A DNA stretch of 64,000 bases from Candidatus Gottesmanbacteria bacterium. GTDB taxonomy: Bacteria > Patescibacteriota > Microgenomatia > UBA10105 > UBA927. Positions 5,027-55,900 of this stretch are shown here, piece after piece. The first letter of the stretch is position 1, and each line of letters starts with the position of its first letter. Under the pieces are notes generated by a model, which worked only from the letters and a program-made list of their open reading frames with translations, did not search any database and was not told the DNA's origin. The stretch is taken from positions 795,548 to 859,547 of the forward strand of contig OY969569.1 of the NCBI GenBank assembly GCA_963701185.1, read 5' to 3'. The position numbers and the translations under genes are program-made.

Positions 5027-5063
5027 CGAAGGCGGGAATCGGTTTTGGTATTGTCCGAATTAG
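5027..5063. repeat. GC-rich hairpin repeat copy 1 (REP-like / putative bidirectional terminator) between convergent valS and the downstream gene
   Basis: 'GTCATTCCCGCGAAGGCGGGAATCGGTTTTGGTATTG'. Stem ATTCCCGC/GCGGGAAT with loop GAAG. Sits 12 nt after the valS stop and next to the 3' end of the minus-strand gene. Near-identical copies occur at 18709, 47276 and 55864. Confidence 0.7.
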
Positions 5064-5803
5064 TTTCCCGAGGTTGTCGCTGGTGTTGGCGTCGAAGAAA
5101 AATCAAGCGTTGAGATGATCTGGGTGAAGAGCGCGTCGTCGCGAGCCCAATCCGCAGTGACACCAACCGGCGTAAAGTGATTAATTTCCAAAGTGAGAGC
5201 CGGCGTCACTTCAATCATAAACCCGTGCATTTGTGTAAACCCGTAGCCGCCGGTCGTGCGGCCCGAGAATGTACCGGTATATTCAATAGCCGTATGCCCC
5301 GACATAGTCGCATCATGGCTGGTAAATGCCGTCCCTGCAACGTCCGTGATAACCGCACCGCGAAGACTGGATAATGACTGCGTGACAGTTTTGGGCGACA
5401 TTGTCAGTCTTGTGCCGCCCGGCAGATTCGTCCCCTGTGAGATACATCCTGCCACATCGCACGCGGGCGCCATAACATCCGGCGGCAATTTATACGAAAT
5501 TCCGGCGGCGGTATTCGTCCGCCAGTTAGCGAACGGATCCGCAGGTGTGGGGGTTGCGACGATCGGAGTCGGAGTTGGAACCCGGCCGCTCGCATTGTTC
5601 AGACCTGACAAAAATGGTAGGAGGTATGGTGAAAGAACTATGCCGGCAGCGACCAAAAGAATCAACAGGAGAATTGTGAAAACCGGAGAACCGCGGGAGA
5701 GGGCAGGCATCGGCGGAGGTGGAGGTACCTGCGGTTGCGTCGGCTCAGGCATATCCATGGGGATTTCCGGCGTTTCTTCGATAGGAAGCGGAGTATCATT
5801 CAT
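5060..5803 (-). CDS. hypothetical membrane protein (Pro-rich cytoplasmic N-terminus, single TM, extracytoplasmic domain)
   Basis: ORF with 'PQVPPPPPMP' followed by TM 'VFTILLLILLVAAGIVL'. Chosen over the overlapping plus-strand ORF 5256..5876 because its composition is protein-like. Confidence 0.45.
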   Translation of the reverse strand: MNDTPLPIEETPEIPMDMPEPTQPQVPPPPPMPALSRGSPVFTILLLILLVAAGIVLSPYLLPFLSGLNNASGRVPTPTPIVATPTPADPFANWRTNTAAGISYKLPPDVMAPACDVAGCISQGTNLPGGTRLTMSPKTVTQSLSSLRGAVITDVAGTAFTSHDATMSGHTAIEYTGTFSGRTTGGYGFTQMHGFMIEVTPALTLEINHFTPVGVTADWARDDALFTQIISTLDFSSTPTPATTSGN

Positions 5804-5857
5804 AACTCTATTGTTCCATGGTCCCCGCAGGGTGTCAACGCGAAAATTCTCCGGTTT

Positions 5858-6421
5858 TTATGCTCTCTCGAGGTAGGTTCCTGTTTCCGGATCGATGGCA
5901 ATCGTTTCGCCTTCTTTAATGAAGAGCGGCACGGTGACGACAGCACCGGTCTCGACAATCACGGTTTTGGTTGCCCCCGATACGGTATTACCCTTGGCGC
6001 CTTCCGTGGCCTCGGTTACCTTGAGGCGCACTTTTTTGGGGAACCGCAGTCCCACGGCTTCTTCACCATTCACCAACACCTGGTAGACATCGTTGGGTTT
6101 TAAATAATTAACATAAATACCTAACATGGCGGCGGGAATGTTGTACTGTTCGTAGGACGTATTGTCCATAAACACATAATTATCGTTTTCTTTGTAGAGA
6201 TACTGCATTTCGCGCGTGGCGATGGATACTTCCGTCACGGATTCGCCGGATTTGTAGGTAAATTCCTGCACCTTGCCGGTTTTCAAAGACTTAAGCCGGG
6301 TCCGCACAAACGCCGAACCCTTCCCGGGATTCACATGAGTCGCCTCCACAATCTGATGGGGTTCGCCTTTGAATTCGATAAATGTACTCTTGGTAAAATC
6401 GCCGGTGGTAATTGTAGCCAT
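5858..6421 (-). CDS. efp: elongation factor P
   Basis: 187 aa with 'FKGEPHQIVEATHVNPGKGSAFVRTRLKSLKTGK'. The conserved Lys sits in the PGKG loop (the beta-lysylation site in the EpmA system). Confidence 0.85.
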   Translation of the reverse strand: MATITTGDFTKSTFIEFKGEPHQIVEATHVNPGKGSAFVRTRLKSLKTGKVQEFTYKSGESVTEVSIATREMQYLYKENDNYVFMDNTSYEQYNIPAAMLGIYVNYLKPNDVYQVLVNGEEAVGLRFPKKVRLKVTEATEGAKGNTVSGATKTVIVETGAVVTVPLFIKEGETIAIDPETGTYLERA

Positions 6422-6428
6422 AGAATCC

Positions 6429-7415
6429 TCAAATTATATCAAATTCTTCGCGGGCTGGGAAGAACAAGGTGTCTGCAATGTCCGTCACACCGGCCAAAAG
6501 CATGACGAGGCGATCAACGCCCACAGCGATGCCGCTGCATTTTGGAAGTCCTACTTTCAGGGCGTCAATAAAATCGTGATCATAATCGTACGTCGTTTTC
6601 CCCAGACGTTTGAGCTCAACAAGTTCTTTTTTAAACCGCTCTTCCTGCTCAACGGGGTCCGTGAGTTCCGAATACGCATCGGCGAGCTCCAAGCCGCCCG
6701 CATACACTTCAAAACGCTCCGCAAATCTCGAGTCACGTTCTTTTTTCTTCGCAAGAGCCGCAAGTACCACCGGAAATTCATACAGAATCGTGGCTGTTTT
6801 CCCCCGTCCTAAATGAGATTCTACTTCGTTTAAGAATATCTGGTTATACTGCTCTTCCCATGTTGTACGCTCGTTGAGCGTATACCCTTTCTTCCGGGCA
6901 ATTTCGGGCGCATGATCAAAAAATTCATCAAAATTCACACCTGCATATTTTTTAAATGCAGCGGCCACGGTGATGCGTTCCCACTGATAATGAAGTCCGA
7001 TATGTGTAAATAACCTTTCACATTCATCCATGATATCGGTATAGTCTGCGCCCGCGCGGTACCACTCAAGAATCGTAAATTCGGGGTTATGGGTCCGGCT
7101 ATGCGTTTCCGTGTTGCGGAAACTTTTGGTAATGGCAAAACAATTACCCAAGCCCGCAACCATGAGCTTCTTTAAAGGAACTTCCGGGGACGTGGAGAGA
7201 TACGCGGGGGTTGCGCGGCGGGCCCGGTCAAGAAGTTTCGTTTCAAATACGTCCAAATATGATTCGGCCGGCGGATGGGCAATGAGGAGGGGCGTTTCTA
7301 TTTCGTGGAACTTCTCTTTTTCAAAAAATGACCGGATCGCACGGATTACCTTTTCGCGGACGAAATACCGCTCCCATAATTCCGGATGATCATGAAGTTT
7401 ACGCCAAGTACTCAT
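6429..7415 (-). CDS. epmA: EF-P--(R)-beta-lysine ligase EpmA (PoxA/GenX; truncated class II LysRS paralogue)
   Basis: 328 aa, about LysRS-catalytic-core length with no anticodon-binding domain. Class II motifs are present ('FHEIETPLL', 'EFTILEWYRAGADY', 'GLELADAYSELTDPVEQEERF', 'GLPKCSGIAVGVDRLVMLL'). Located immediately downstream of efp. Confidence 0.7.
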   Translation of the reverse strand: MSTWRKLHDHPELWERYFVREKVIRAIRSFFEKEKFHEIETPLLIAHPPAESYLDVFETKLLDRARRATPAYLSTSPEVPLKKLMVAGLGNCFAITKSFRNTETHSRTHNPEFTILEWYRAGADYTDIMDECERLFTHIGLHYQWERITVAAAFKKYAGVNFDEFFDHAPEIARKKGYTLNERTTWEEQYNQIFLNEVESHLGRGKTATILYEFPVVLAALAKKKERDSRFAERFEVYAGGLELADAYSELTDPVEQEERFKKELVELKRLGKTTYDYDHDFIDALKVGLPKCSGIAVGVDRLVMLLAGVTDIADTLFFPAREEFDII

Positions 7416-7467
7416 GAATAGATTGTACTACGGCGCTTTATAATTTCAAAGCTTAGCTTTAAAATAA

Positions 7468-18288: not shown

Positions 18289-18500
18289 ATGTTTGGTACG
18301 GGATCAAAACCGCCTTTCGACCATGGATGGCAGCGAAGAATACGTCTCACCCCCAAAATCGATCCTCTGATTATACCATAGCGCTCGATTGCGCCATAGG
18401 TGTACTCGCTGCACGTGGGAGAAAAACGGCATGCCTGTCCGGTTAAGGGAGATATATACCGCTGATAGAACCGGATGGATTTCAAAATAAACCGTTTCAT
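18285..18500 (-). CDS. yidD: membrane protein insertion efficiency factor YidD
   Basis: 71 aa with '[31 protein letters not shown]...[13 protein letters not shown]'. Confidence 0.85.
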
Positions 18501-18844
18501 ACGGAAAGTAATCCGCTGATGATTTTTTCCACTTCAGACTGGGGGATATCCGCGAAATTCTTCTTCGCGATAAAAATACCGTCAATGGGCGGTAAGGTTG
18601 ATAAAAGATGCCGCACCGATTCGCTCATAACCCGGCGCATGCGGTTCCGTTGCGTCGCGCGTTTATCTATTTTTGTCGACACGATGAACGCGAATCTGGA
18701 AGTATTATTGTCATTCCCGCGCAGGCGGGAATCGGTATTGGTTTTTTTATAAATTAACTCAATGAGCTCACTGCGTACGTGCGTGCCGTAGCGCAAAAGT
18801 GGAGATATCCCTTCTTTGGGAAGTCTATGGGCGGCGGACAACAT
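18497..18844 (-). CDS. rnpA: ribonuclease P protein component, with an in-frame hairpin-repeat insertion
   Basis: '[28 protein letters not shown] ... [31 protein letters not shown]' is the RnpA fold with the RNR motif. The segment '[15 protein letters not shown]' is encoded by the hairpin repeat. Confidence 0.8.
18709..18747. repeat. GC-rich hairpin repeat copy 2, located inside the rnpA CDS
   Basis: 'GTCATTCCCGCGCAGGCGGGAATCGGTATTGGTTTTTTT'. Translated in-frame on the minus strand as part of RnpA. Confidence 0.7.
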
Positions 18845-18847
18845 GAA

Positions 18848-18985
18848 TTAAATACTGACGCGGCGGCGTCCAACCAGCCTGCGGTGCTTCAACACCTTAC
18901 GGCCGCCGATCGTACGCATCCTGAGACGGAATCCGTGCTTCCGGATGTGTTTTTTCTTTTTCGGCTGATAGACGCGCTTGGGCAT
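18848..18985 (-). CDS. rpmH: 50S ribosomal protein L34
   Basis: Not in the ORF track because it is under 60 aa. Manual translation of the minus strand gives [45 protein letters not shown], a canonical L34, immediately upstream of rnpA. Confidence 0.8.
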
Positions 18986-19030
18986 GGGGGTAGTATACCA
19001 AGATTTCCCTTGTGGTACAATAACCCCGAT

Positions 19031-27527: not shown

Positions 27528-27550
27528 CGAACAAAACAAATGTGTTTACT

Positions 27551-27570: not shown

Positions 27571-27571
27571 T

Positions 27572-35176: not shown

Positions 35177-35180
35177 AGGT

Positions 35181-35840: not shown

Positions 35841-35850
35841 ATGGGTATAA

Positions 35851-44457: not shown

Positions 44458-44763
44458 TTAATTGCCGGGGATCGTAAATTGCGTGACATTGACGCCGGTA
44501 AACAACTGGATGGTGCGTAAGATAAGATACGCAATGACGATAACGACAACGCCGGTGATAGCTGCCGTCAGCGTGCCGCGGGCTTTCTCGAGTTTTTTTT
44601 GGTCCCCGCCGGAGAATAAAAAACCGTACCCGCCGATTATGAACATGATAAATAATGCAACGCCTATGAGTGCGGTAAGCGCCTGCACGACACCCGTAAA
44701 TATCGGTTCAAAACATTGAAGTGTCGCTGCGCCCCCAATCGTACAGTTCTGCCAGGTCCACAT
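44458..44763 (-). CDS. VirB2/TrbC-like T4SS pilin paralogue 1
   Basis: TM1, then 'GGYGFLFSGGDQKKLEKARGTLTAAITGVVVIV', then TM2. Same architecture as the other paralogues. Confidence 0.6.
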   Translation of the reverse strand: MWTWQNCTIGGAATLQCFEPIFTGVVQALTALIGVALFIMFIIGGYGFLFSGGDQKKLEKARGTLTAAITGVVVIVIAYLILRTIQLFTGVNVTQFTIPGN

Positions 44764-44814
44764 ATGGAATCATTATCGCGCAGATGGCGGCAACAGGCAA
44801 GAGGGTGTCGCGCT

Positions 44815-45147
44815 TTAATTAAAAGGCTTTGGGAACGTGAGCGTCCCGCCGATAATCGATATGCCCAGGAAATTCTGGACGAGAATCATAATCGCCCACG
44901 CGGCTCCGACAATGATAAGTCCGACAATCGCATGGGTAATTTTATTGCGCGCAGCTTCCATGCCGGCTTTGTCTCCGCCGGAGGTGATCCATTGGATGCC
45001 GCCCATGATAAGGAAAAAGAATGCCAGGAGTGCCGCAACGATAAGAAGCACGCCGACGAGCGCACTGATGAGCTGACCGATATCACCGATTTTTATGTTC
45101 GCGGGTTGCGGGATTGTAATCTGTGCCTGTGCAAATACCTTTTCCAT
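44815..45147 (-). CDS. VirB2/TrbC-like T4SS pilin paralogue 2
   Basis: 'LIMGGIQWITSGGDKAGMEAARNKITHAIVGLIIVGAAWAI' is the core motif GG.QW.(T/S).GGD...A..I..AI.GL.I. Confidence 0.65.
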   Translation of the reverse strand: MEKVFAQAQITIPQPANIKIGDIGQLISALVGVLLIVAALLAFFFLIMGGIQWITSGGDKAGMEAARNKITHAIVGLIIVGAAWAIMILVQNFLGISIIGGTLTFPKPFN

Positions 45148-45222
45148 AATTCCTCCTTATTAACGACCGTGTTTTATTATATCCTTATTCTCATTGTTGC
45201 GCAACTATCTTTCGCTTGTCAA

Positions 45223-45579
45223 CTATTGATTAATGCTCGGGATGGTAAGTTTTGTGATCTCTATGCCGAAAAATTGTCCGACGAGCGTCATGAGCGCATA
45301 GGCTGCCGCCACGATCACCAGCCCCATAATGGCGTTGGTAATACCGCTGCGCGCTTTCTCCAGCGCCTGCTTGTCTCCGCCTGCAGTGATCCATTGGATG
45401 CCGCCGATAAGAAGCAGCATAAACGTGAGTAAGAATCCCGCGATAAACAGTGCGCCGACCAAATTACTGATGAGCTTTCCCAGCGACGCGCCGCCCTGAG
45501 AAACATCGGGGTTTGGTCCGCCTCCGAGAGACGGGGGTAAAACGGGGTTTCGGATCTGAGATAATATTCGTGTATTCAT
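45223..45579 (-). CDS. VirB2/TrbC-like T4SS pilin paralogue 3
   Basis: 'LLIGGIQWITAGGDKQALEKARSGITNAIMGLVIVAAAYAL'. Confidence 0.65.
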   Translation of the reverse strand: MNTRILSQIRNPVLPPSLGGGPNPDVSQGGASLGKLISNLVGALFIAGFLLTFMLLLIGGIQWITAGGDKQALEKARSGITNAIMGLVIVAAAYALMTLVGQFFGIEITKLTIPSINQ

Positions 45580-45581
45580 TT

Positions 45582-45974
45582 TTACTGAATTTTTAATTGC
45601 TGAATAATGACTCCGGGATTGCCGACAAGAATATCATATCCGAAGAATTGACCGACGACCGCGATCATGATCCAGGCGGCAATGATGATGACGAGCCCGA
45701 AAAATCCGTTCATAATCCGCTGCCGGGCCGTTGTAAGCTTTTTTGTGTCTCCGGCGCTGGAAATCCATTCATAGCCGCCAAACAGGAGCTGGAACATAAA
45801 CCAAATACTGCCGGCTATCGTCAGAAATCCGACGATGGAGGATATGACTCCGGTTACCTTGGTCAGCGCCAGTACGCCGCCTGCCTGACCACCGAAATTT
45901 AGCGCCCCAAACGGCCCCAAGCCGGATCCTCCGATGTTTCCAAGCCCCTGTCCTGTTTGTGCAAGTAGCGCCAT
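45582..45974 (-). CDS. VirB2/TrbC-like T4SS pilin paralogue 4
   Basis: Gly-rich N-terminus, then 'LLFGGYEWISSAGDTKKLTTARQRIMNGFFGLVIIIAAWIMIAV'. Confidence 0.6.
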   Translation of the reverse strand: MALLAQTGQGLGNIGGSGLGPFGALNFGGQAGGVLALTKVTGVISSIVGFLTIAGSIWFMFQLLFGGYEWISSAGDTKKLTTARQRIMNGFFGLVIIIAAWIMIAVVGQFFGYDILVGNPGVIIQQLKIQ

Positions 45975-45977
45975 AGA

Positions 45978-46352
45978 TTATGGTGTGTAAATCTTCGGAT
46001 TTAAGATATACCCCGCATCGCCGAACAATAAGTATCCGAATAGTGCGGCGAGGGCGAATGAGCTGACCACAAGAATGAGTCCCAAGAGCGACTGCCAGAT
46101 TTTTCCCCATGCCTTTTGCACGACTTTTGAGTCTCCTCCGGCGCCCATAAATTGGAATCCGGCGAGAATAAGATTGATGAATGCAAACAATCCGGCGACC
46201 ACAAAGACCAGCCGGAGAATGTTTGTGAGAAAGAGGATGAGTCCGCCGCCCTGTGCGGCAGTTATGCCCCGGTATGCTTTCGGGAGCGGATTGTCAACCG
46301 TCCCGACGATGCTTGATGCGCCCTGTGCAAATATTTTTTCCATGCCAAACAT
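45978..46352 (-). CDS. VirB2/TrbC-like T4SS pilin paralogue 5
   Basis: 'LILAGFQFMGAGGDSKVVQKAWGKIWQSLLGLILVVSSFALAAL'. Confidence 0.6.
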   Translation of the reverse strand: MFGMEKIFAQGASSIVGTVDNPLPKAYRGITAAQGGGLILFLTNILRLVFVVAGLFAFINLILAGFQFMGAGGDSKVVQKAWGKIWQSLLGLILVVSSFALAALFGYLLFGDAGYILNPKIYTP

Positions 46353-46354
46353 AA

Positions 46355-46711
46355 TTATTTCAGACCGACCATCTGTTTTAATATGTCAGCGCCCGTGATG
46401 GTGGCGATGACCTGGACGATAAGAACTGATAAGACGACGATCAAAAGCCCGATGACCGCCCCGGTTACCGCCCTTTTGCTCTGTTCGAGTTGTTTGGCGT
46501 CCTCGGATCCTGCTCCCACTATAACGCCCAGTCCCCCTAAAATCAATAAAACAAAGCTGATAACCCCGGCCAGTACGACGGCATTTTTGACAATCACGGA
46601 TACGATTGAGCCGAAGTCGCTAAATGTCGCGGCGGGCGCGAATATGGTTTTGATGTCGACAGCGTACACCATTCTCAGATCATTGTATGGGTAAATGGAG
46701 GTTACTGTCAA
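46355..46711 (-). CDS. VirB2/TrbC-like T4SS pilin paralogue 6
   Basis: 'LLILGGLGVIVGAGSEDAKQLEQSKRAVTGAVIGLLIVVLSVLIVQV'. Confidence 0.6.
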   Translation of the reverse strand: MTVTSIYPYNDLRMVYAVDIKTIFAPAATFSDFGSIVSVIVKNAVVLAGVISFVLLILGGLGVIVGAGSEDAKQLEQSKRAVTGAVIGLLIVVLSVLIVQVIATITGADILKQMVGLK

Positions 46712-47273
46712 TTTATGGTATAGTTATCGGGTTGTGGACGACGCAAACATTATTCCTAAGATTCTTGCGCGCGACCGGAGGGCACTGCTTATTTTTTACC
46801 GCAGGTACGCGCCGAAACTCTCCCGCTTCATTGCCGGAAAGATCGGAAATCCGGGCGATGCGGAAGAGGTTCTGCAGGACACGCTCTATGCATTCTTGGA
46901 GGCCATCCGCGATTTTCAGGGAAAAAGCAATATTCAGACGTTTTTGTTTTCCATTTGCCAGCACAAAGTGATTGATTATTACCGGAGAAAGAAGCTCAAG
47001 CACGCAGTGTTTTCCCAGATGCCGCAGCTTGAGGCGATTATCTCGCCTCTTATCAGTCCCGAAGACCAGCTGGATGCCGTTTTAGTGAAAGAGAAAATTC
47101 ACGCCGTGTTGGGGCGACTCCTCCCGCGTCATAGGCAAATTTTGCAGCTGAAATATCTTGACGGGTTATCCGTAGAAGAAATCGCAAAACGCCTGGCGAT
47201 GACATTTAAGAGTGTCGAGTCCCAGCTTTTCCGCGCCAGGAAAGCCTTTGTCGAGCATTTTATATCTATTTAG
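46695..47273 (+). CDS. RNA polymerase sigma factor, ECF (sigma-70 group 4) family
   Basis: Region 2 'DAEEVLQDTLYAFLEAIRDFQGKSNIQTFLFSICQHKVIDYYRRK'. Region 4 HTH 'LKYLDGLSVEEIAKRLAMTFKSVESQLFRARKAF'. Divergent to the pilin array. Confidence 0.75.
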   Translation: MEVTVNLWYSYRVVDDANIIPKILARDRRALLIFYRRYAPKLSRFIAGKIGNPGDAEEVLQDTLYAFLEAIRDFQGKSNIQTFLFSICQHKVIDYYRRKKLKHAVFSQMPQLEAIISPLISPEDQLDAVLVKEKIHAVLGRLLPRHRQILQLKYLDGLSVEEIAKRLAMTFKSVESQLFRARKAFVEHFISI

Positions 47274-47275
47274 GT

Positions 47276-47313
47276 GTCATTCCCGCGAAGGCGGGAATCG
47301 GTACTGGTATTTG
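47276..47313. repeat. GC-rich hairpin repeat copy 3, directly after the sigma factor stop codon
   Basis: 'GTCATTCCCGCGAAGGCGGGAATCGGTACTGGTATTTG' begins 3 nt after the TAG. Confidence 0.7.
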
Positions 47314-47344
47314 AAAAAAATGCAGATCCCCGATCAGGTCGGGG

Positions 47345-47590
47345 ATGACAAAAAAACATATGAGAAGTACAACATATCAAAAATTTGTCAAAAGGTGGGA
47401 AGAGGTGACGGACCTGCCGCCGCAGACAGTCGGGCCCCTGACGCCCCTTTATAAAGCAGTCGCCCGGCGGCTCAAAGTGATGCCCTGGCCGGTATTGGTT
47501 CTCTCGTCGCTCGTTGTGGTTACGGGATTGTATGTGATCATCGGATCCGCCATTACCCTCCTTGTCTCCGTTCTGCAAAAAGGATTTTAA
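47345..47590 (+). CDS. putative anti-sigma factor (small single-pass membrane protein)
   Basis: 81 aa. Charged cytoplasmic N-terminus, one TM (VLVLSSLVVVTGLYVIIGSAITLLV). Position immediately after the ECF sigma gene. Confidence 0.4.
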   Translation: MTKKHMRSTTYQKFVKRWEEVTDLPPQTVGPLTPLYKAVARRLKVMPWPVLVLSSLVVVTGLYVIIGSAITLLVSVLQKGF

Positions 47591-47616: not shown

Positions 47617-48234
47617 ATGGAGACATCGCTTATTGTCGCGCTTGTTGATTTTAGCAGAAATATTATAGGATTAATTATCCGTCCGTATGAAACGTGCCGC
47701 AGGATCGTGGAAAAAGAAAACCCGTTGGAACTGATTTATGTTGCGGTAGTGCTTGCCGTATATTTTGTCCTCGCGTCTTTGGTTAAGGTTGCCAGCTTCC
47801 GTCCGTTTCTTCTGACCCGGCAGTTTTTTGTGTTGGCGGGTGCGGTAGCTATTACGTATTGTTTTGTCGTGACGGTATTCTGGGTGGTAGGGAGATTGGT
47901 GGGCGCAGGCGGGAAAATGAAAGGCCTTGCGGTCCTCTGGGGGTATTCGCTGCTGCCTACGACACTCTGGTTTTTCGTCACATCTCTCCTCTATGTTTTG
48001 TTGCCTCCGCCGCGGACCACAAGCATTCAGGGGATTCTTTTCAGCGTATTCTTCCTCGTGTTTTCCATTACGCTGTTTTTGTGGAAGGCAACGATTACCT
48101 ATTTGTCTCTCCGCTTCGGACTCAAGGTGGATTTAGGAAAAATTTTGGTTATTTTGGCGATATCACTTCCGGTTCTTGCGTTATACAGTTACGGCATGTA
48201 TAGACTCGGAATCTTTAAAATACCGTTTATATGA
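47617..48234 (+). CDS. polytopic membrane protein (Yip1-like topology)
   Basis: 205 aa with five predicted TM helices. Stop overlaps the HMGR start (ATGA). Confidence 0.4.
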   Translation: METSLIVALVDFSRNIIGLIIRPYETCRRIVEKENPLELIYVAVVLAVYFVLASLVKVASFRPFLLTRQFFVLAGAVAITYCFVVTVFWVVGRLVGAGGKMKGLAVLWGYSLLPTTLWFFVTSLLYVLLPPPRTTSIQGILFSVFFLVFSITLFLWKATITYLSLRFGLKVDLGKILVILAISLPVLALYSYGMYRLGIFKIPFI

Positions 48235-49370
48235 ACCTACGTGATTACACAAGCGTTTTGGAACGAAGGAAAGCGATTGAGAAAGAACGGAACGTTGATC
48301 TTACGCATATCGGTGCCTTCACGCTGGATGAGACTGTTGCCGTCACACGAAACTGCGAAAACATGATTGGCGCAGTACAGATTCCGATGGGAATTGCCGG
48401 GCCGCTTCGCATTGCCAAAAAAGAATATTATCTGCCGCTTGCGACCACGGAAGGTGCGCTCGTGGCGTCCGTGAACCGCGGATGCAGGGCAATAACCGAA
48501 TCAGGAGGGGCATTTGTCCGAAGTAAACGCGTGGGTGCTACGCGCGGGCCTGTATTTCGTGTTGAGTCTATGCGGGACCAAGTAGTTTTCAGTGATTTTC
48601 TTAAAAAGAATTTTAAGGATTTGAAAAATATTGCTCAGTCAACATCAGGTCACATAACGCTTCTCAGTGCTCATTCACGGGCCGTTGGAAGATATCGCTA
48701 CGTACGTTTTGTTTTTGACACACAGGACGCCATGGGCATGAACATGGCAACAATCGCGGCGCAAAAACTTGTTGCGTTTATTGAATTAAAAACCACGGCC
48801 CGCTGCGTTTCCGTGGCAGGGAATTATGACATAGACAAAAAACCCGCCTGGGTGAATGTTATTGAAGGCCGCGGTACAAAAGCATGGGCGGAAGTGACAA
48901 TTTCCGACAGAATTTTAAGGAGAATATTGAAAACCACCGCGCAAAAAATATATGATGTGTGGCTTGCAAAATGTATGATCGGGTCTGCCATGAGCGGCTC
49001 GATGGGATTCAATGCTCAGTATGCAAATGTAATCGCTGCACTTTTTATTGCTACAGGCCAGGATCCCGCACATGTTGTTGAGGGAAGTTTGGGGATAACA
49101 ACGGTGGAGGTTATTGACGGAAAAAATCTATACATGAGCGTCTATCTTCCTGATTTGATGGTCGGGACTGTCGGAGGAGGAACCGGACTTGCGACACAAC
49201 GGGAAGCGCTATCGATGATTGGCGCAAAAACGAGTCAAGAGTTTTCGGAAATTATCGCCGGAGCAGTGCTGGCGGGGGAGATTTCGTTACTCGCATCATT
49301 AAGCGAAGGAACGTTAGCACGGGCACACCAAAAATTGGCGCGCGGAAAAGTATTAAGTACTAAATACTAA
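48231..49370 (+). CDS. hmgA: hydroxymethylglutaryl-CoA reductase (class I-like)
   Basis: 'DAMGMNMATIAAQK' is a class I signature. 'AGNYDIDKKPAWVNVIEGRGTKAWAEV' and 'IGTVGGGTGLATQ'. Confidence 0.8.
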   Translation: MNLRDYTSVLERRKAIEKERNVDLTHIGAFTLDETVAVTRNCENMIGAVQIPMGIAGPLRIAKKEYYLPLATTEGALVASVNRGCRAITESGGAFVRSKRVGATRGPVFRVESMRDQVVFSDFLKKNFKDLKNIAQSTSGHITLLSAHSRAVGRYRYVRFVFDTQDAMGMNMATIAAQKLVAFIELKTTARCVSVAGNYDIDKKPAWVNVIEGRGTKAWAEVTISDRILRRILKTTAQKIYDVWLAKCMIGSAMSGSMGFNAQYANVIAALFIATGQDPAHVVEGSLGITTVEVIDGKNLYMSVYLPDLMVGTVGGGTGLATQREALSMIGAKTSQEFSEIIAGAVLAGEISLLASLSEGTLARAHQKLARGKVLSTKY

Positions 49371-49405
49371 GTATTAATTAAAACTTAGCACTTAGAATTT
49401 AAACT

Positions 49406-50455
49406 ATGGTCGGCATTGTTAGTTACGGAACATACATACCGCAGTATCGGATTAAGCTGGCCGATATCGCCGCGGCGTGGAAAAAAGATCCGCAGGAAGT
49501 CGTCGGGTCGCTCGGGATTGAAGAGAAATCGGTTCCGGGGACTGATGAGGATGCCGTATCGATAGCGCTGGAAGCGGCATGGAATAGCCTGTCGGCATTC
49601 AACGGAAAACCGGCGGACATAGAAGCACTCTTCGTCGGGAGCGAAAGCCATCCGTATGCTGTGAACCCGACATCAACGATTGTCGGAGAGTTATTGGGAG
49701 CCGGACATAACTATTTGGCAGCGGATTTGGAATTTGCCTGCAAGGCCGCAACGGCGGGCGTGCAGGCGGCTGCCGGACTTATCAGCGCGGGACACGCGCG
49801 TTATGGTTTAGTCATCGGAGCGGATACTGCCCAAAGCAAGCCGCATGATGCCCTGGAGTATACCTCGGCGGCGGCAGGGGCCGCATATCTGCTGTCGGGA
49901 GAGAAGCAAGAGATTGTTGCTAAACTTCTGGCTTATACCTCGTATTCTTCCGATACGCCGGATTTCTGGAGACGGGACGGCATCCGGTATCCCTCCCACG
50001 CAGGGCGATTTACCGGCGAACCCGCATATTTTGCCCACGTACTTGGCGCGGCAGCCAGACTCTTTGCCCAGTGTCATATGAAACCGGAGGATTTTGATTA
50101 TTGCGTATTCCATATGCCCAACGGCAAGTTCCCGCGCGACGCGGCGCGCCGTCTGGGATTTAGTAAAGAGCAATTGTCAACGTCTCTTATCGTTGATTAT
50201 ATCGGCAATCCGTACTCCGCCTCTGCCATGCTCGGCCTTGCGGCGGTCCTGGATATTGCACGGCCGGGTGAAAAAATATGTATGGTGTCGTATGGCTCCG
50301 GCGCGGGCTCGGATGCGTTTGTATGGGAAACGACGCCGCTCTTGCCGCGCATGCAGAAGATCCGCGGAAAGCAGCAGAGCTTGGTAACCCAGCAGATAGT
50401 AAAAAAACAGTATGTGGATTACGTCGGCTATTTGAAGCAGACACACAAGATTTAA
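49406..50455 (+). CDS. hydroxymethylglutaryl-CoA synthase, archaeal-type (thiolase-fold condensing enzyme)
   Basis: 'MVGIVSYGTYIPQYRIKLADIAAAW', catalytic Cys context 'LEFACKAATAG'. About 350 aa. Co-located with a thiolase and a DUF35 protein, as in the archaeal HMGS/thiolase/DUF35 complex. Confidence 0.75.
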   Translation: MVGIVSYGTYIPQYRIKLADIAAAWKKDPQEVVGSLGIEEKSVPGTDEDAVSIALEAAWNSLSAFNGKPADIEALFVGSESHPYAVNPTSTIVGELLGAGHNYLAADLEFACKAATAGVQAAAGLISAGHARYGLVIGADTAQSKPHDALEYTSAAAGAAYLLSGEKQEIVAKLLAYTSYSSDTPDFWRRDGIRYPSHAGRFTGEPAYFAHVLGAAARLFAQCHMKPEDFDYCVFHMPNGKFPRDAARRLGFSKEQLSTSLIVDYIGNPYSASAMLGLAAVLDIARPGEKICMVSYGSGAGSDAFVWETTPLLPRMQKIRGKQQSLVTQQIVKKQYVDYVGYLKQTHKI

Positions 50456-50512
50456 TTTGAAAATTAAGAAAATAAAAATTGATTAAAAATTGAAAATTTT
50501 AAATTAAAAATT

Positions 50513-51658
50513 ATGAAAGTGTATATAACCGGCGCAGCAACGACAAAATTCGGTGAATTGTGGGCAACGTCCCCCAGGAGCCTTGCGCGCACGGCAGCGT
50601 TCGGCGCACTGAAAGACGCGGGGATTGGCGTCCGTCGCATCCAGGCGGTATTCGTCGGCAATATGTTGTCCGGCATCTTGGGCGGGCAGGAGCATTTGGG
50701 CGCATTTTTTGCGGAAGAATTAGGAATAAGCGTACCGGCATTTAAAATTGAAGGCGCGTGTGCATCCGGCGGTCTTGCGCTTCATAACGCAGTCAACAGT
50801 GTTTTGTCGGGTCAGTACGATACTGTGGTTGTTCTGGGTGTAGAGAAAATGACGGATCACAAGCCGGAAGATGTCGCCACAGCCCTCATGGGTGCGGGAT
50901 CGGAAGAAGAACGTGCGGCCGGTGCGACATTTCCGGGCTTGTACGCCATACTTGCGCGTGCCCATATGAGGGCATATGGGACGACACAGGAACAGCTCGC
51001 CGCAGTTGCCGTCAAAAATCACTATCATGCATCGCTCAACCCCAATGCGCAGTTTCATACCACACTTACGATTGAACAGGTTATACGAAGTTCGCGGATT
51101 GCCGACCCCTTACGGCTTTTGGATTGCTCGCCCATTTCAGACGGAGCTTCAGCACTTGTTATCACGAGTAAAAAATCAGGAGTTCAGATAGCCGCCTCGA
51201 CGGTCGCGACGGATACGTTGGGATTGGCACAGAGGAAAAGTCTTACAGAGCTGGCCGCGACGAAAGAGGCGGGTAAAAAGGCATATAAACATGCAGGCAT
51301 GACACCGAAGGATGTTGATGTTGCGGAGGTTCATGATTGTTTTACCATTGCCGAAATATTTGCGATGGAAGACCTCGGATTTTTTTCGAGGGGAAAGGCT
51401 GCTGTTGCAATTGCGGCCGGAGAAACAAGACTTGAAACATCACGCCATCTCGTCGTTAATCCTTCGGGCGGACTCAAAGGGTGCGGGCATCCGGTGGGGG
51501 CAACCGGCGTGAAGCAAATTGTGGAACTGGTCGATCAACTGCGCGGCCGCGCCACAGCGCGGCAGGTAAAAGGAGCAACAATTGGTTTAGCACATAATGT
51601 CGGCGGCAGCGGGGCAACAGCGGTTGTGCATATACTTAAAAAATTAATGTATGAATAG
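50513..51658 (+). CDS. acetyl-CoA C-acetyltransferase (archaeal-type thiolase)
   Basis: Active-site Cys 'IEGACASGGLALHNAV'. C-terminal 'GHPVGATGVKQIVELVDQLRG' and 'GLAHNVGGSGATAVVHIL'. Confidence 0.8.
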   Translation: MKVYITGAATTKFGELWATSPRSLARTAAFGALKDAGIGVRRIQAVFVGNMLSGILGGQEHLGAFFAEELGISVPAFKIEGACASGGLALHNAVNSVLSGQYDTVVVLGVEKMTDHKPEDVATALMGAGSEEERAAGATFPGLYAILARAHMRAYGTTQEQLAAVAVKNHYHASLNPNAQFHTTLTIEQVIRSSRIADPLRLLDCSPISDGASALVITSKKSGVQIAASTVATDTLGLAQRKSLTELAATKEAGKKAYKHAGMTPKDVDVAEVHDCFTIAEIFAMEDLGFFSRGKAAVAIAAGETRLETSRHLVVNPSGGLKGCGHPVGATGVKQIVELVDQLRGRATARQVKGATIGLAHNVGGSGATAVVHILKKLMYE

Positions 51659-51950
51659 TCCGGTTAAAATTTGGAGAAACCAAAAACATATAGCCAATCT
51701 GCTTGGCCGCGAGGGAACGATCGTTTCCTGGACCGTTGTCCGCGTGCCGCCCGCCGGATTTTCCAATCTTGCGCCGTATCCCGTCGTGGTTGTTGATCTT
51801 GCAGGAGGAGGGAGAATTACCGCTCAACTCGTGGATTGGAACGAAGCAGATCTCACAGAAGGACGACGGGTAAAAGTAGTCATCCGGCGCATCTGTGAAC
51901 CCACAACTGAGGGCATTATTCCGTATGGGATTAAGGTGAAACCCGTCTAG
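51651..51950 (+). CDS. DUF35 OB-fold protein (scaffold of the thiolase/HMGS complex)
   Basis: 99 aa. 'GTIVSWTVVRVPPAGFSNLAPYPVVVVDLAGGGRITAQLVD' is OB-fold DUF35-like. Overlaps the thiolase stop. Confidence 0.6.
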   Translation: MNSPVKIWRNQKHIANLLGREGTIVSWTVVRVPPAGFSNLAPYPVVVVDLAGGGRITAQLVDWNEADLTEGRRVKVVIRRICEPTTEGIIPYGIKVKPV

Positions 51951-51959
51951 GAATTCTAT

Positions 51960-52848
51960 ATGAAAATTTCAGTATCTGTTCCCGGGAAAATTATTCTGAT
52001 GGGTGATCATGCGGTCGTGCATGGAAAGCCTGGGCTTATTGCTGCAGTCAACCGCAGGCTTACCGTACAGGTTTCATGCAGGAAAAGGCACACACAAGGA
52101 ATATATCTCACACATTCTCGGGATTATACAAAATCATTTTCAGCTTTCGATACCGCCTGCATTTACGGATAACAATTACGTCAGATATCCCCGAGGGATA
52201 TCACTTGGGTTCATCTGCTGCGGTTGCAGTAGCAACTATTGGGGCCGCCATCGTATTTTTTGAAAAAAATATGGAATCCGACTGCTATAAATCAACTTGC
52301 GTATGAGGCGGAAAAAATACACACATAAGATCCGTCAGGAGGTGACAATACGGCGGTGACATTCGGAGGATTTATATGGTACAGAAAGGAACTGGAATTT
52401 TCAAAAGTATTTGGCAGTTGCCGCTGAAGTTTCCGCGGCGATTAATCATTTTTCTCTCATTGATACCGGTCGGCCCAAAGAGAAATACGGGAGAGATGGT
52501 TGCGTACGTTGAGGAAACTCAATACACAATACAATGCAAGAAGTTTTTGACACAAATGAAGTACAGACAAAAAGAATTGCGGTGGCATTAAAAGAGGGAG
52601 ATGAAAAGACATTTATTGATGCGATGCGAAAAGGCGAACGGACTCTGGAGGCAATCGGCGTAGTCAGTCCGAAAGTGATTCCCATAATCCGTGCGGTTGA
52701 GAAATCCGGTGGAGCAGCAAAAATATTAGGTGGCGGGGGACGCGCCAACGGCGTGGGGTATCTGTTATGTTATTCCCATAACCCTCCAGAAGGAGCAATG
52801 CCAATCACACTTGGTGAAGAAGGGGTTCGTTTGGAGAAAAAAATATGA
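51960..52848 (+). pseudogene. GHMP-kinase (mevalonate kinase-like) gene disrupted by several frameshifts and an in-frame TAA
   Basis: Conserved pieces lie in different frames. 'PGKIILMGDHAVVHG' is in frame 0. 'ITSDIPEGYHLGSSAAVAVA' is in frame 2. 'LAYEAEKIHT*DPSGGDNTAVTFGGFIWY' is in frame 0 with an in-frame TAA. 'LIDTGRPKEK' and the C-terminal 'ILGGGGRANGVGYLLCY' are in frame 1. The total span of about 890 nt equals one GHMP kinase. Confidence 0.6.
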
Positions 52849-54191
52849 GAACAAGCGCACCGGGAAAACTCATGTTGCTTGGCGAACATGCCGTCGTGTA
52901 CGGGTATCCGTGCATTGTGACGGCCATTTCCCAAAGGCTTTATGTGAAGGAAGGAAATTCCACCGGTGATACGCGATTTTTGGATGCAGCGATAAAATTA
53001 TGGGGAACTAGTAGCACAAAACTTTCTGCAGATTGTTTGTTTTCCGGAAAATATGGGTTCGGATCTTCTTCCGCGGTGACGGTTGCGGCACTCAAAGCTC
53101 TAAAACCCAATGCGCCTAATAAAGACATTTTTGATGCGGCATACAAGATCGTTCTGGATATTCAGGGTGCGGGATCAGGATTTGATGTTGCGGCGGCAAC
53201 TCACGGCGGGACGCTGTATTACGTAAAAAATAAAACAATTGAGCCTTTGGCAATCAGCGATATGCCGCTTATCGTTGGGTATACCGGTATAAAAAGCAGT
53301 ACGATTGATATCGTCAACACGGTAGCCGCCAAAAGGGATGCGTACCCGGAAAAAGTAGACAGGATTTTTCTCGGGATTGCCAAACTCGTGGATCAGGCGA
53401 AGGAAAAAATGCTTACAGGAGATTGGGAGCGTGTCGGCAGACTCATGGATTTTGACCAGGAGTATCTTCGCGATCTTGGGGTAAGTTCGGAGAAACTGGA
53501 GGCATTGATCAAGGCGGCCAAACGTGCAGGAGCTTGGGGCGCCAAGCTGTCTGGGGCGGGCGGCGGAGATTGTATGATTGCCATGGCGCCTCCTGACAGG
53601 CGGCAAGCAGTGGAAGACGCTATAGCGGACGCGGGCGGGGAGGTGGCGCGGGTCACGCCCGACGCAGAAGGGGTGAGGATCGAAACCACGGATAATCAGG
53701 ATGAACTTTTTATTGTTGTCGATCGCGATGATACCATTTTAGGATACAAAACCCGCTATGAATGTCATCATGATAAAACTCTTATACACCGGGTGGTAGG
53801 TGCTTTGATTTTTGATGAAGCCGGCAGAATCTTATTACAAAAGCGCAGTATGACAAAAGATATGGGGCCGGGATTGTGGGGAATATCAGCAGCGGGTCAC
53901 GTGACAAAGGGTCAAACGGATGAGGAAGCTGTGCACCGCGAGCTTCAGGAAGAGTTGGGGGTAGATATACCGTTAACATTCTGGAAAAAATTTATATCGG
54001 AAGAGCCGAGTGAAACAGAACGGGATATGATTTATAAAGGCATGTCAGACGGCCCGTTTCATCCGAACGCGGAAGAGGTCTCCGAGGTACGTTTTTTTGA
54101 AATCCGCGAACTCAAATTTCTGTGTGCAAGTCGGCATATCCGGCTGACTGCAGGAGCAGCAAGAACATTACGCGAGGTGGAAATTTTATGA
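52845..54191 (+). CDS. mevalonate kinase (GHMP kinase) fused to a C-terminal Nudix / IPP-isomerase-type-1-like domain
   Basis: N-terminus 'SAPGKLMLLGEHAVVYG', 'GFGSSSAVTVAALKAL', 'KLSGAGGGDCMIAM' is an intact GHMP kinase. C-terminal ~150 aa 'VVGALIFDEAGRILLQKRSMTKDMGPGLWGISAAGHVTKGQTDEEAVHRELQEELG' is an IDI-1/Nudix fold. Ala replaces the Cys of the canonical IDI 'CCGH' motif. Confidence 0.65.
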   Translation: MRTSAPGKLMLLGEHAVVYGYPCIVTAISQRLYVKEGNSTGDTRFLDAAIKLWGTSSTKLSADCLFSGKYGFGSSSAVTVAALKALKPNAPNKDIFDAAYKIVLDIQGAGSGFDVAAATHGGTLYYVKNKTIEPLAISDMPLIVGYTGIKSSTIDIVNTVAAKRDAYPEKVDRIFLGIAKLVDQAKEKMLTGDWERVGRLMDFDQEYLRDLGVSSEKLEALIKAAKRAGAWGAKLSGAGGGDCMIAMAPPDRRQAVEDAIADAGGEVARVTPDAEGVRIETTDNQDELFIVVDRDDTILGYKTRYECHHDKTLIHRVVGALIFDEAGRILLQKRSMTKDMGPGLWGISAAGHVTKGQTDEEAVHRELQEELGVDIPLTFWKKFISEEPSETERDMIYKGMSDGPFHPNAEEVSEVRFFEIRELKFLCASRHIRLTAGAARTLREVEIL

Positions 54192-55114
54192 AGAAAGCAA
54201 CCGCCATCGCGCCCGCAAACATCGCGTTTATCAAATTTTGGGGTAAAAAAGATGCGGCGTTGCGCCTGCCGTGCAATCCGTCGATTTCCATGAATTTATC
54301 ATCTTGTACGACGACGACGATAGTAGAATTCTCGCCTGATTTTGAAAAAGACACAGTGTCAGAAGGTTTCGACGAAAAAAGAATACTCGATCACGTTGAC
54401 CGTTTACGGAAAATCGCAGAATCGGAAGAAAAAGTAACGGTGATAACGGAAAATAATTTTCCGAAATCAGCGGGTATTGCCTCGTCCGCGTCGGGTTTTG
54501 CAGCGCTTACCGTGGCCGCCGCCGCCGCGTTGGGTTTAAAACTTTCGGAAAAGGAGTTGTCAAGTCTTGCCCGTTTGGGATCAGGATCCGCAAGCCGCAG
54601 TATTCCCGATGGTTTTGTAAAATGGGATGGCGAATTTGCCCGATCTCTCTACCCGCCGGACTGGTGGGACCTGCGGGATATTATCGTCATTGTACAAAGT
54701 CGGGTCAAGGATGTGCCCACATCGATCGGTCATGAAAACGTGCAAACAAGTCCGTTTTTCAAAAAAAGACTGGAAGCGTTGCCCCGTCGGATTACGCGAT
54801 TAGAAAAGGCACTGAAAGAAAAAAACCTTACGATGTTTGGAGAAATACTCGAAGAAGAGTGCCTGGATATGCATCATGTCATGCAGACACAGACGCCGCC
54901 GTTATTTTATTGGAACGATGATACAAAACGGGTAATGAAGAAATTGAAAATGAGCGGAATACCGGCCTATTTCACTATTGATGCCGGACCCAATGTACAC
55001 GTCATGTGTGAAGCAAAAGATGAAAGAAAAGTAACGCAACTTTTTAAAAATTGGAAAATGATCGTCAATAAACCGTCAGATGGCGCCCATATAGTCAATA
55101 CACACTTATTTTAG
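54188..55114 (+). CDS. mvaD: diphosphomevalonate (or phosphomevalonate) decarboxylase
   Basis: 'APANIAFIKFWGK', 'ITENNFPKSAGIASSASGFAALTVAAA', 'GSGSASRS'. ATGA overlap with the upstream gene. ORF trimmed to MKKATAIAP. Confidence 0.8.
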   Translation: MKKATAIAPANIAFIKFWGKKDAALRLPCNPSISMNLSSCTTTTIVEFSPDFEKDTVSEGFDEKRILDHVDRLRKIAESEEKVTVITENNFPKSAGIASSASGFAALTVAAAAALGLKLSEKELSSLARLGSGSASRSIPDGFVKWDGEFARSLYPPDWWDLRDIIVIVQSRVKDVPTSIGHENVQTSPFFKKRLEALPRRITRLEKALKEKNLTMFGEILEEECLDMHHVMQTQTPPLFYWNDDTKRVMKKLKMSGIPAYFTIDAGPNVHVMCEAKDERKVTQLFKNWKMIVNKPSDGAHIVNTHLF

Positions 55115-55139
55115 TATGGTAATATGCTAATATGCTAAT

Positions 55140-55820
55140 ATGACACAACAGCAAAATATACCGACACATATTGCCATCATCATGGACGGAAACCGGCGGT
55201 GGGCTGGTGAACATAAGCTTCCGATTTTGGAAGGGCATCGCAGGGTCGCCAATGTCGTCTTGGAACGCCTTGTTGAACATGCGGCAAAACGCGGGATTGC
55301 ATACATAACATTCTGGGCATTCTCGACGGAGAATTGGAATCGGGCAAAAGATGAAGTAAAAGGAATCATGCAGATTTTATCCCAGGGCATCGGATATTTC
55401 GGGAAGCGTATGTTTGAAAAAGGAGTGAAACTGCAGATGATCGGTGACCTGTCGCGTCTTGACCCGAAACTGCAAAAAAGTATTCTGCAGGTAGTAGAAA
55501 ACACAAAAGAAAATAAAAGAATTACATTGATTATCGCATTAAATTACGGAGGGCGGGACGAAATAATACGCGCAATGCAGAAAGTGAACGGGGAAATATC
55601 AGAAAAAGAATTTTCTCAACTTCTTGATACCGTTGGCATTCCCGATCCGGATTTACTCATACGGACGGGCGGGGAACAGCGGTTAAGCGGATTTTTACCG
55701 TGGCAAAGCGTCTACAGCGAACTGTATTTTCCGCCGTGGTACATGCCGGATTTTACCCCCCGTAGGTTGGACGAGGCGATTGAGGAATTTGCGCGCCGTC
55801 AGCGCCGGTTTGGTCGTTGA
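55140..55820 (+). CDS. uppS: isoprenyl transferase (undecaprenyl-diphosphate synthase family)
   Basis: 'HIAIIMDGNRRWA', 'GHRRG', 'ITFWAFSTENWNR', 'RTGGEQRLSGFLPWQSVYSELYF'. Confidence 0.85.
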   Translation: MTQQQNIPTHIAIIMDGNRRWAGEHKLPILEGHRRVANVVLERLVEHAAKRGIAYITFWAFSTENWNRAKDEVKGIMQILSQGIGYFGKRMFEKGVKLQMIGDLSRLDPKLQKSILQVVENTKENKRITLIIALNYGGRDEIIRAMQKVNGEISEKEFSQLLDTVGIPDPDLLIRTGGEQRLSGFLPWQSVYSELYFPPWYMPDFTPRRLDEAIEEFARRQRRFGR

Positions 55821-55823
55821 TGT

Positions 55824-55857
55824 GTCATCCTCGCGAAAGCGAGGATCTGCCTTTTTC
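55824..55857 (+). terminator. intrinsic terminator after uppS (hairpin variant of the repeat family)
   Basis: 'GTCATCCTCGCGAAAGCGAGGATCTGCCTTTTTCG'. Stem ATCCTCGC/GCGAGGAT, loop GAAA, followed by a T-run. Same architecture as the CCCGC/GCGGG repeat but with compensatory changes. Confidence 0.65.
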
Positions 55858-55863
55858 GAAAAA

Positions 55864-55900
55864 CAACACCAAAACCGATTCCCGCCTTCGCGGGAATGAC
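55864..55900. repeat. GC-rich hairpin repeat copy 4 (inverted orientation)
   Basis: The reverse complement is 'GTCATTCCCGCGAAGGCGGGAATCGGTTTTGGTGTTG', one mismatch from copy 1. Lies between convergent uppS and the pilin gene. Confidence 0.7.

Follow-up and report, generated by a model that had tools for sequence, protein, structure and literature searches.

Introduction

Repetitive extragenic palindromic (REP) elements with a CGTC tag, which is often TGTC, have been defined by an 8-9-bp stem with A-T residues at the first and second positions, a loop of 4 nt in family 1 and of 5 nt in families 2-4, and a 3-nt unpaired tail with the consensus CCA (PMC3733652). They are dispersed, with 20 to thousands of units per genome, lie downstream of open reading frames (ORFs) and occasionally within genes, and are mostly arranged as HH dimers (tags outside), either homo- or heterodimers, with spacers of 20-100 bp (PMC3733652). 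Family CGTC-1 corresponds to Neisseria dRS3, and CGTC-1 and CGTC-4 were equated with the Rickettsia palindromic elements (RPE) RPE-6 and RPE-4 (Di Nocera et al. 2013, PMC3733652). Five phyla were recorded as hosts in that 2013 survey, which does not list the Candidate Phyla Radiation (CPR) among them (PMC3733652). In Neisseria, the 21-mer ATTCCCGCGCAGGCGGGAATC is a REP with 241 occurrences in one strain, where it forms REP doublets that fold into hairpins (REPINs) and is linked to a Group 2 REP-associated tyrosine transposase (RAYT) (Bertels and Rainey, bioRxiv 10.1101/2021.07.10.451892). Here we describe hairpin repeats of this kind in a stretch of 64,000 nucleotides of contig OY969569.1 from a Candidatus Gottesmanbacteria bacterium, referred to as the window, where they lie just downstream of genes and, in one case, in frame inside rnpA, the essential gene for the RNase P protein. 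The kind of element is itself already catalogued; what the present units add is an extension of the hosts to the CPR and the finding that the same protein loops receive in-frame copies repeatedly. In a full-text search of a limited literature, we found no paper tying REP, RPE or RAYT to Patescibacteria.

Results and discussion

Six hairpin units at four loci

The 26-mer GTCATTCCCGCGAAGGCGGGAATCGG is present four times in the window with at most one mismatch, at 5017(+), 18710(+), 47276(+) and 55900(-), and in none of 100 dinucleotide-preserving shuffles of the same DNA. The near-identical repeat family described in the original prediction is thus present beyond chance. A degenerate pattern added a variant unit at 55824(+), and a hairpin scan anchored on GTCAT revealed a further one, GTCATCCCCGACCTGATCGGGGATCTGC, on the minus strand. 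This last unit had been overlooked in the earlier count of five copies; the total is six units at four loci, comprising two singletons and two dimers (Table 1), and the first copy, previously placed at 5027-5063, occupies 5016-5054. An nhmmer profile built from the four main units recovered all four of them in the 64 kb, with E values of ~1e-13, and no further decayed copies.

Table 1. Hairpin units of the window and related units or dimers inside genes of other loci. Labels beginning with L denote loci fetched from other genomes and metagenomes.
Feature	Position or locus	Strand	Description	Basis
Main unit, singleton	5016..5054	+	TGTC tag, stem ATTCCCGC, loop GAAG, stem GCGGGAAT, tail CGG, conserved spacer start TTTTGGTATTGT	
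Main unit, antisense within rnpA	18709..18747	+	Loop GCAG	Pattern match, orthologue alignment
Main unit, left arm of HH heterodimer 47275-47350	47275..47301	+		Pattern match, folding
Variant unit, right arm of HH heterodimer 47275-47350	47323..47350	-	TGTC tag, stem ATCCCCGA, 5-nt loop CCTGA, stem TCGGGGAT, tail CTG, T-run	Hairpin scan, folding
Variant unit, left arm of HH heterodimer 55823-55901	55823..55849	+	TGTC tag, stem ATCCTCGC, loop GAAA, stem GCGAGGAT, tail CTG, then CCTTTTT	Degenerate pattern, folding
Main unit, right arm of HH heterodimer 55823-55901	55875..55901	-		Pattern match, folding
rnpA loop	L087, L088		Same main unit as in the window	
rnpA loop	L094		Main unit with one compensatory pair and one mismatch	
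rnpA loop	L093		Stem ATCCTCGC/GCGAGGAT, two fully compensatory pairs; stem of the window variant at 55824	
rnpA loop	L089		5-nt-loop variant followed by a GCAG tail of its own; encodes IPDQVGDD	
rnpA loop	L090 59-433		5-nt-loop variant whose hairpin loop holds a further nested palindromic segment of 30 nt, GCTCGCCTCGCTGAAGCTTCGGCGAAGCGG; protein of 124 aa	
rnpA loop	L091, L092		Shortened TCCCGCC hairpins	
rnpA loop	L023, L095		GTCCCGC-AGA-GCGGGAC palindrome	
rnpA loop	L083, L085		Partial deletions, tail ACCAATACCGAT kept	
CopA P-type ATPase	L013 2866-2924 (Patescibacteria DATKGN010000012.1)		In-frame dimer reading VIPAPEPGSHWIPGQARND	
Tgt (tRNA-guanine transglycosylase)	L012 3070-3144 (Gottesmanbacteria RIFOXYB1_FULL_47_11)		In-frame dimer directly after DSGGFQVFSLG	
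TsaD (tRNA t6A synthesis)	L036 595-662; L006 242-310		Heterodimer in the same loop in two distant CPR genomes	
Wzy_C-type O-antigen-ligase-like gene	L034 4318-4386; L035 5898-5953; L036 12043-12068		Units or dimers	
SNase-type nuclease	L036		In-frame dimer	

All six units follow a common plan, in which an unpaired TGTC stands directly 5' of a perfect 8-bp stem that opens with an A-T and then a T-A pair, and the stem is closed by a loop of 4-5 nt and followed by a 3-nt tail. The loop is GAAG in three units, GCAG in one and GAAA in one (4 nt), and CCTGA in the remaining one (5 nt); the tail is CGG in main units and CTG in variant units. The four main units continue into the less conserved GGTWYTGGTDTT: a single loop base differs among them within the 27-nt core, and between 1 and 4 positions differ in the 12 nt that follow. 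The fold of every unit is an 8-bp hairpin whose stability exceeds that of its shuffles (z = -2.4 to -5.1), in agreement with the stems that had been predicted, and the variant at 55824 indeed departs from the main unit by compensatory changes, at two stem pairs. The GNRA-like tetraloops that had also been proposed hold for the GAAA of this variant only, since GAAG and GCAG are not GNRA loops.

In both dimers, a main and a variant unit are paired tail-to-tail with their tags outward, giving outer ends of the form GTCAT...ATGAC, and are separated by spacers of ~21-25 nt. On the minus strand, 55818-55906 folds into one long hairpin of -38.3 kcal/mol.

Several other identities were considered and rejected. 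A match inside dnaA (27833-27846, two mismatches to a 14-mer) has neither the tag nor the family flanks and is not a member. ARAGORN ruled out a tRNA-like identity of the repeats, and Rfam at the gathering threshold gave no match at them, the window yielding only a transfer-messenger RNA (tmRNA) and one tRNA. With copies 13-29 kb apart or in inverted pairs, there is no array of the kind formed by clustered regularly interspaced short palindromic repeats (CRISPR).

The units belong to the CGTC/TGTC-tagged REPs

The variation of the stem was followed in 31 distinct related units. Their tags are TGTC (19 units), CGTC (11) and GGTC (1). At the first stem position 30 units have A-T and one G-T, and at the second 30 have T-A and one T-G. 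Position 3 is T-A in 16, C-G in 14 and G-C in one; position 4 is C-G in all 31; position 5 is C-G in 21, T-A in eight and T-G in two; position 6 is C-G in 24, G-C in six and C-C in one; and C-G, A-T and G-C are all found at position 8. The tag and the first two stem pairs stay fixed while the stem covaries. CCA is the commonest tail among related units of other loci (11 of the 31).

On this architecture, the six hairpins are CGTC/TGTC-tagged REP elements, of the superfamily that includes Neisseria dRS3 and Rickettsia RPE-6 and RPE-4; among the structural features tested, only the tail consensus departs from the published definition. This definition, the covarying stems and the recurrence of the element in Patescibacteria and other phyla, described below, bear out the earlier proposal of a REP-like, copied element.

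The closest counterpart is CGTC-1/dRS3, with which the present units share the tag, the 8-bp stem starting with A-T and T-A, the 4-nt loop, the 3-nt tail, the HH heterodimers, the mostly ORF-downstream position, the occasional intragenic unit and the absence of an adjacent transposase, as well as the exact Neisseria 21-mer in the rnpA copy. They differ from it in their Patescibacteria/CPR host, in their CGG or CTG tail instead of CCA, and in their usual dimer partner, which here is the 5-nt-loop unit ATCCCCGA-CCTGA-TCGGGGAT; unlike in Neisseria, they form no large clusters. Like the REPIN-RAYT systems, the window has two inverted REPs within 130 bp, and its REP master sequence is identical to that of the Neisseria REPIN population; its singletons look like the remnants of dimers. 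However, no RAYT was found in the window, the two arms differ in stem and loop, and a single long hairpin is formed only at 55823-55901.

The in-frame palindromic repeats of Rickettsia offer a second parallel, being likewise located in housekeeping genes of a reduced genome and encoding short peptides at tolerated sites. RPE-1, the classic in-frame element of Rickettsia, measures ~100-150 nt, whereas the present units measure 27-39 nt (10 aa) and their dimers ~75 nt (~25 aa); the likeness to RPE-6 is one of description. The REPs and bacterial interspersed mosaic elements of E. coli are also short tagged palindromes downstream of genes that are able to stabilise or terminate transcripts, but they have a GTAG tag, another stem architecture and a cognate RayT (b0228), and no similarity to them was found. 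A miniature inverted-repeat element derived from a DDE transposon was rejected: no duplication surrounds the main-type rnpA unit, and the outer GTCAT/ATGAC ends are the REP tags.

A unit inserted in frame in rnpA

The gene rnpA (18497..18844(-), 115 aa; Pfam Ribonuclease_P PF00825, E = 1.5e-14) stands in its usual order, rpmH-rnpA-yidD-yidC-jag, and the relatives of its product are named Candidatus Gottesmanbacteria. The unit that it contains carries the exact Neisseria REP 21-mer ATTCCCGCGCAGGCGGGAATC, and translation confirmed that it is read in frame, as the 15-residue peptide that had been noted. In an alignment of 47 RnpA relatives, the insertion corresponds to about residues 35-49 of the window protein, while most of the relatives are 105 aa long and have YKKTTG-VPRF at this point. 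The DNA of such empty sites reads TAY AGR AAA ACN nnn GGN GTC CCC CGY TTY. Compared with them, the net insertion is of about 30 nt (18710-18739), which encode 10 residues on the minus strand, and its reverse complement, GTCATTCCCGCGCAGGCGGGAATCGGTATT, is the unit with its tag and tail. As judged from these alignments, the rnpA copy is a genuine 30-nt in-frame insertion relative to most orthologues, and its tolerance, proposed earlier, is supported by them. Those orthologues that share the protein segment also share the hairpin DNA, rather than encoding the same residues with unrelated nucleotides. An assembly artefact or contamination was rejected as well: the same insertion is found in the independent assemblies L087, L088 and L094, and the flanking genes are typical of CPR.

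The comparison of filled and empty rnpA sites reveals no target-site duplication at the main-type unit, which fits strand transfer of the HUH type. In the AlphaFold2 model of RnpA (mean predicted local distance difference test score, pLDDT, 88.8; predicted template modelling score 0.81), residues 35-49 are modelled as coil between strands 28-34 and 50-54, with the pLDDT dropping to 65-71; E. coli RnpA structures align to the window protein only from residue 47 onward. According to this model, the insertion occupies a surface loop of a beta-hairpin, in a part modelled with low confidence. In the sense of the rnpA mRNA no T/U run follows the hairpin, and a terminator scan (hairpin plus T-run) flags the unit on neither strand.

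Alleles at the rnpA loop in relatives

A metagenome scan for relatives of rnpA found about eight close loci, which mostly have empty sites. The alleles with an insert or its remains are listed in Table 1 and range from the same main unit as in the window to partial deletions. Two near-identical rnpA genes, L095 2033-2383 and L096 271-588, differ in that the former has a 33-nt insert, RFVPQSGTPLAKP, and the latter is empty. On its two sides, this insert has the copies of an imperfect direct repeat (ACCCGTTTC and CCTCGCTTC), which could be a target duplication or a sign of local palindrome formation.

In a neighbour-joining tree of RnpA from which the loop had been removed, filled and empty alleles intermix, the tree being short and poorly resolved, and the DNA of a filled and an empty allele (P0004 and P0006) is near-identical outside the insert. 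Together with the variety of the alleles, these observations point to a hot spot in rnpA, a permissive site where units have been gained, lost or replaced more than once.

Distribution in other genomes and other in-frame copies

A 24-mer of the repeat followed by the CGGT tail of this lineage was found in 19 stretches of a set of species-representative genomes. The hosts from the CPR are Gottesmanbacteria RIFOXYB1_FULL_47_11, Taylorbacteria, Saccharimonadia and other Patescibacteria, and those from outside it are Omnitrophota and Sphingomonas, Massilia, Accumulibacter and other Proteobacteria. In the CPR loci, the tags-outward heterodimer of a main and a variant unit recurs, with the spacer start conserved, and the HH arrangement is also present in L006, L008, L012-L015, L018, L034, L036 and L058; the dimers of the proteobacterial loci consist of two like arms. 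Without the tail, the 24-mer is found in at least 120 stretches of IMG/VR contigs, some of them arrays. Some viral or prophage contigs among them (L109, L159 and L107) have 5-13 copies within a few kb (~68-275 nt apart in L109), and their arrays look similar to the large dRS3 clusters of Neisseria.

In the fetched CPR loci, long ORFs also contain dimers, and Pfam domains are recognised before and after the insert (Table 1). The dimer in CopA closely follows the DKTGTLT phosphorylation motif and makes the protein ~11 residues longer there than A. fulgidus CopA, and a second dimer lies just upstream of the gene start; considered as a RAYT candidate because two dimers flank it, this gene was rejected as such, being the CopA ATPase itself. 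In Tgt, the dimer is read as 26 residues, and the Pfam TGT profile matches as a single stretch across it. The inserts in TsaD follow the NHxxxH motif, at Pfam profile position ~101-103, and are read in different frames in the two genomes (SVIPAKAGIH..IPDQVGDD in one and RHSREGGN..DPRVKPEDD in the other), which suggests independent insertions. Three homologues of the Wzy_C-type ligase gene, from the rnpA-yidC-jag neighbourhood, have their inserts at one N-terminal site, with three different stem types among them.

Genomic placement of the window units

The three intergenic loci all fall within the non-coding part of the window, which amounts to 5.25% according to our gene calls, and begin 2-3 nt past stop codons. 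The unit at 5016-5054 starts 2 nt past the stop of a class-I aminoacyl-tRNA synthetase gene (2933-5014, Pfam tRNA-synt_1; valS in the original prediction) and occupies the 45-nt gap to the convergent ORF 5060-5803(-). The dimer at 55823 starts 3 nt past the uppS stop and takes up most of the 91 nt that separate uppS from a convergent pilin gene of type IV secretion system (T4SS) type, 55912-56253(-), with its minus-strand unit 10 nt past the stop of the latter. The dimer at 47275 lies 2 nt past the stop codon (47273) of an extracytoplasmic function (ECF) sigma factor gene and is followed by a co-directional ORF for a 76-aa membrane protein. The placement between convergent genes that had been described as typical is therefore correct for two of the three intergenic loci and does not extend to the sigma factor locus.

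Origin and persistence of the units

We consider it probable that the repeats are, as a whole, REPs of the CGTC/TGTC type that are non-autonomous, are copied in trans and survive at harmless sites. The units would be DNA elements on which a strand-transferase acts in trans by recognising the single-stranded hairpin and the unpaired tag; its gene would lie in another part of the genome or may have been lost, with a precedent in the HUH tyrosine transposase (Group 2 RAYT) tied to the identical Neisseria REP. Copies at unrelated sites share identical non-palindromic flanks, and the filled, empty and decayed sites suggest that the units are, or have been, mobile. In a genome that is ~95% coding, copies would persist only where they are harmless. 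One such place may be a few bases past stop codons, where the hairpin and its T-rich tail could double as a terminator or 3' mRNA stabiliser. The other may be insertion-tolerant surface loops of proteins, when length and frame permit; the rnpA copy would be of this second kind, in an orientation that leaves no U-tract behind the hairpin in the mRNA.

Several observations weigh against this explanation. No RAYT/Y1 or IS110-type transposase domain was detected by Pfam among ~60 ORFs of the window, and tblastn with a single query, E. coli RayT (b0228), gave no match to the window or to the fetched loci (1.8 Mb), which, for one query and part of the genome, is weak evidence of absence; the 2013 survey also associated no transposase with CGTC REPs in any species (PMC3733652). 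The syntenic 20-kb stretches of three relatives have no copy, or the rnpA copy only. Both dimers of the window are heterodimers, and 47270-47355 folds into two separate hairpins because its arms differ, without the long hairpin of a REPIN. Finally, the hairpins inside rnpA are kept by compensatory change in L093 and L094, which could mean selection on the structure and not selfish persistence.

The first alternative is that the units were built for a purpose, as intrinsic terminators or as hairpins that stabilise mRNA at its 3' end, and are kept by the need of the host and not copied. Four of the six units pass the terminator scan, namely 5020(+), which is the top match on the plus strand, 55827(+), 55897(-) and 47346(-); three of these four face an incoming gene and lie 2-10 nt past its stop, and the uppS/pilin dimer could stop both convergent transcripts. 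This alternative nevertheless gives no reason for a terminator inside rnpA, Tgt, TsaD and CopA, or for the L015 dimer located between secY and adk within a ribosomal-protein cluster. Moreover, the unpaired TGTC tag and the exact stem sequence, which termination does not need, are conserved across phyla, and at the sigma factor gene 47279(+) fails the T-run test and its partner faces no incoming gene; the rnpA unit fails the scan as well. As the origin of the family, then, host-made terminators are unlikely. Judging by position and sequence, terminator use is plausible at 5020(+), 55827(+) and 55897(-), and implausible at the rnpA unit and the 47275 dimer. The dispersed bidirectional terminator that had been proposed is retained in part, as a secondary role: only three of the four passing units face an incoming gene, and only the uppS/pilin dimer could act both ways.

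An origin without any transposase, in which the palindromes arise by local template switching at a quasi-palindromic site and are then homogenised by gene conversion among copies, is suggested by the empty rnpA site itself, whose GGN GTC CCC CGY already resembles the tag and left stem arm. The GTCCCGC-loop-GCGGGAC palindromes of L023/P0004, L091 and L092 likewise resemble inverted duplications of local sequence, the L094 unit resembles a hybrid of main and variant, and no transposase is known for CGTC REPs (PMC3733652). Yet the rnpA unit of the window matches the intergenic copies in its tag and in at least 10 nt of non-palindromic tail, and the same 24-27-mer is found in unrelated phyla. Local generation cannot explain these matches, and we regard this scenario as improbable.

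It could also be that the rnpA hairpin is itself functional and that selection on the RNA structure maintains it; it might block an exonuclease or serve as a processing signal, so that expression of rpmH is uncoupled from that of rnpA-yidD-yidC. An 8-bp hairpin persists here in five lineages, in the same orientation, despite amino-acid-changing substitutions, and the stems of L093 and L094 are compensated at two pairs and at one pair (with one mismatch), respectively. Most rnpA orthologues, however, lack the insert, and L083 and L085 lost the hairpin and kept the tail. In addition, the compensated stems are separate stem types of the family, such as that of the window unit at 55824, so that conversion or re-insertion explains them equally well. 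There is accordingly little to recommend a function in rnpA as the explanation of the hairpin.

In Neisseria, dRS3 is an insertion site of filamentous (Nf) prophages and of IS elements. That the present units are recombination targets marking the integration of other mobile DNA in the same manner is very unlikely: their core is identical to dRS3, the 24-mer is as common in IMG/VR contigs as reported above, and a XerC/D-like tyrosine recombinase gene is located at 2052-2912, but none of the four loci has a mobile element, prophage or IS110/Piv-type gene next to it, the units themselves take up nearly all of the gaps, and site use would account for neither their origin nor their spread into coding loops.

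Implications for CPR genomes

The assignment of the units to CGTC/TGTC-tagged REPs extends a catalogued superfamily to the CPR. That very distant phyla share the same 21-27-nt core speaks for horizontal spread or for a recognition partner that is conserved. In these very compact genomes, such elements are repeatedly tolerated, or recruited, inside essential genes, in parallel with the RPE of Rickettsia. For annotation, the peptides SRLRGND, VIPAKAGI, IPDQVGDD and SFPRRRES should be taken as repeat-derived and not as conserved protein motifs.

A stronger proposition, which we put forward tentatively and hold to be rather doubtful, is that CGTC REP heterodimers still insert peptides in frame, time and again, into essential CPR proteins (RnpA, TsaD, Tgt, CopA and a Wzy-type ligase being the cases observed), hitting the same surface loops repeatedly across lineages, with the hairpins kept by compensatory change even within coding sequence, in genomes of ~1 Mb without an evident RAYT. 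Were this so, some mobilising or gene-conversion activity yet to be identified would be implied, which would make the minimal CPR genomes the best place to find the long-missing enzyme of the CGTC REPs. As these REPs have no known transposase and CPR genomes have only ~1000 genes, a comparison of REP-rich with REP-free CPR genomes could identify this enzyme.

Other features of the window

The window has the character of an ordinary chromosomal segment from a CPR bacterium close to Candidatus Gottesmanbacteria. The cumulative GC skew reaches its minimum at ~24-28 kb, near a SecA-like gene (24846-27527), dnaA (27524-28948) and dnaN (29137-30243), and 24000-30300 is likely the replication origin region. 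Both singleton REP units are on the plus strand to the left of this putative origin.

On the strand opposite to rpmH, and overlapping it, a 197-aa ORF (18779-19372, plus strand) matches DUF5674 only in its C-terminal part, from ~19037, so the real gene is shorter and diverges from rpmH. The smpB gene is directly followed by the tmRNA (61328-62185 for both; Rfam RF00023, 105.6 bits), which ARAGORN did not report. A T4SS-like cluster of CPR type is distributed over 30234-37044, 44458-46711 and 55912-56933; it includes a TraG/VirB4-like ATPase, a PrgI-family protein and an M23 peptidase, and is accompanied by at least six small T4SS_pilin (PF18895) paralogues. Finally, 48231-55820 is a mevalonate/isoprenoid run with HMG-CoA reductase, an HMG-CoA synthase-like gene, thiolase and its OB-fold partner, a GHMP kinase-NUDIX fusion and uppS.

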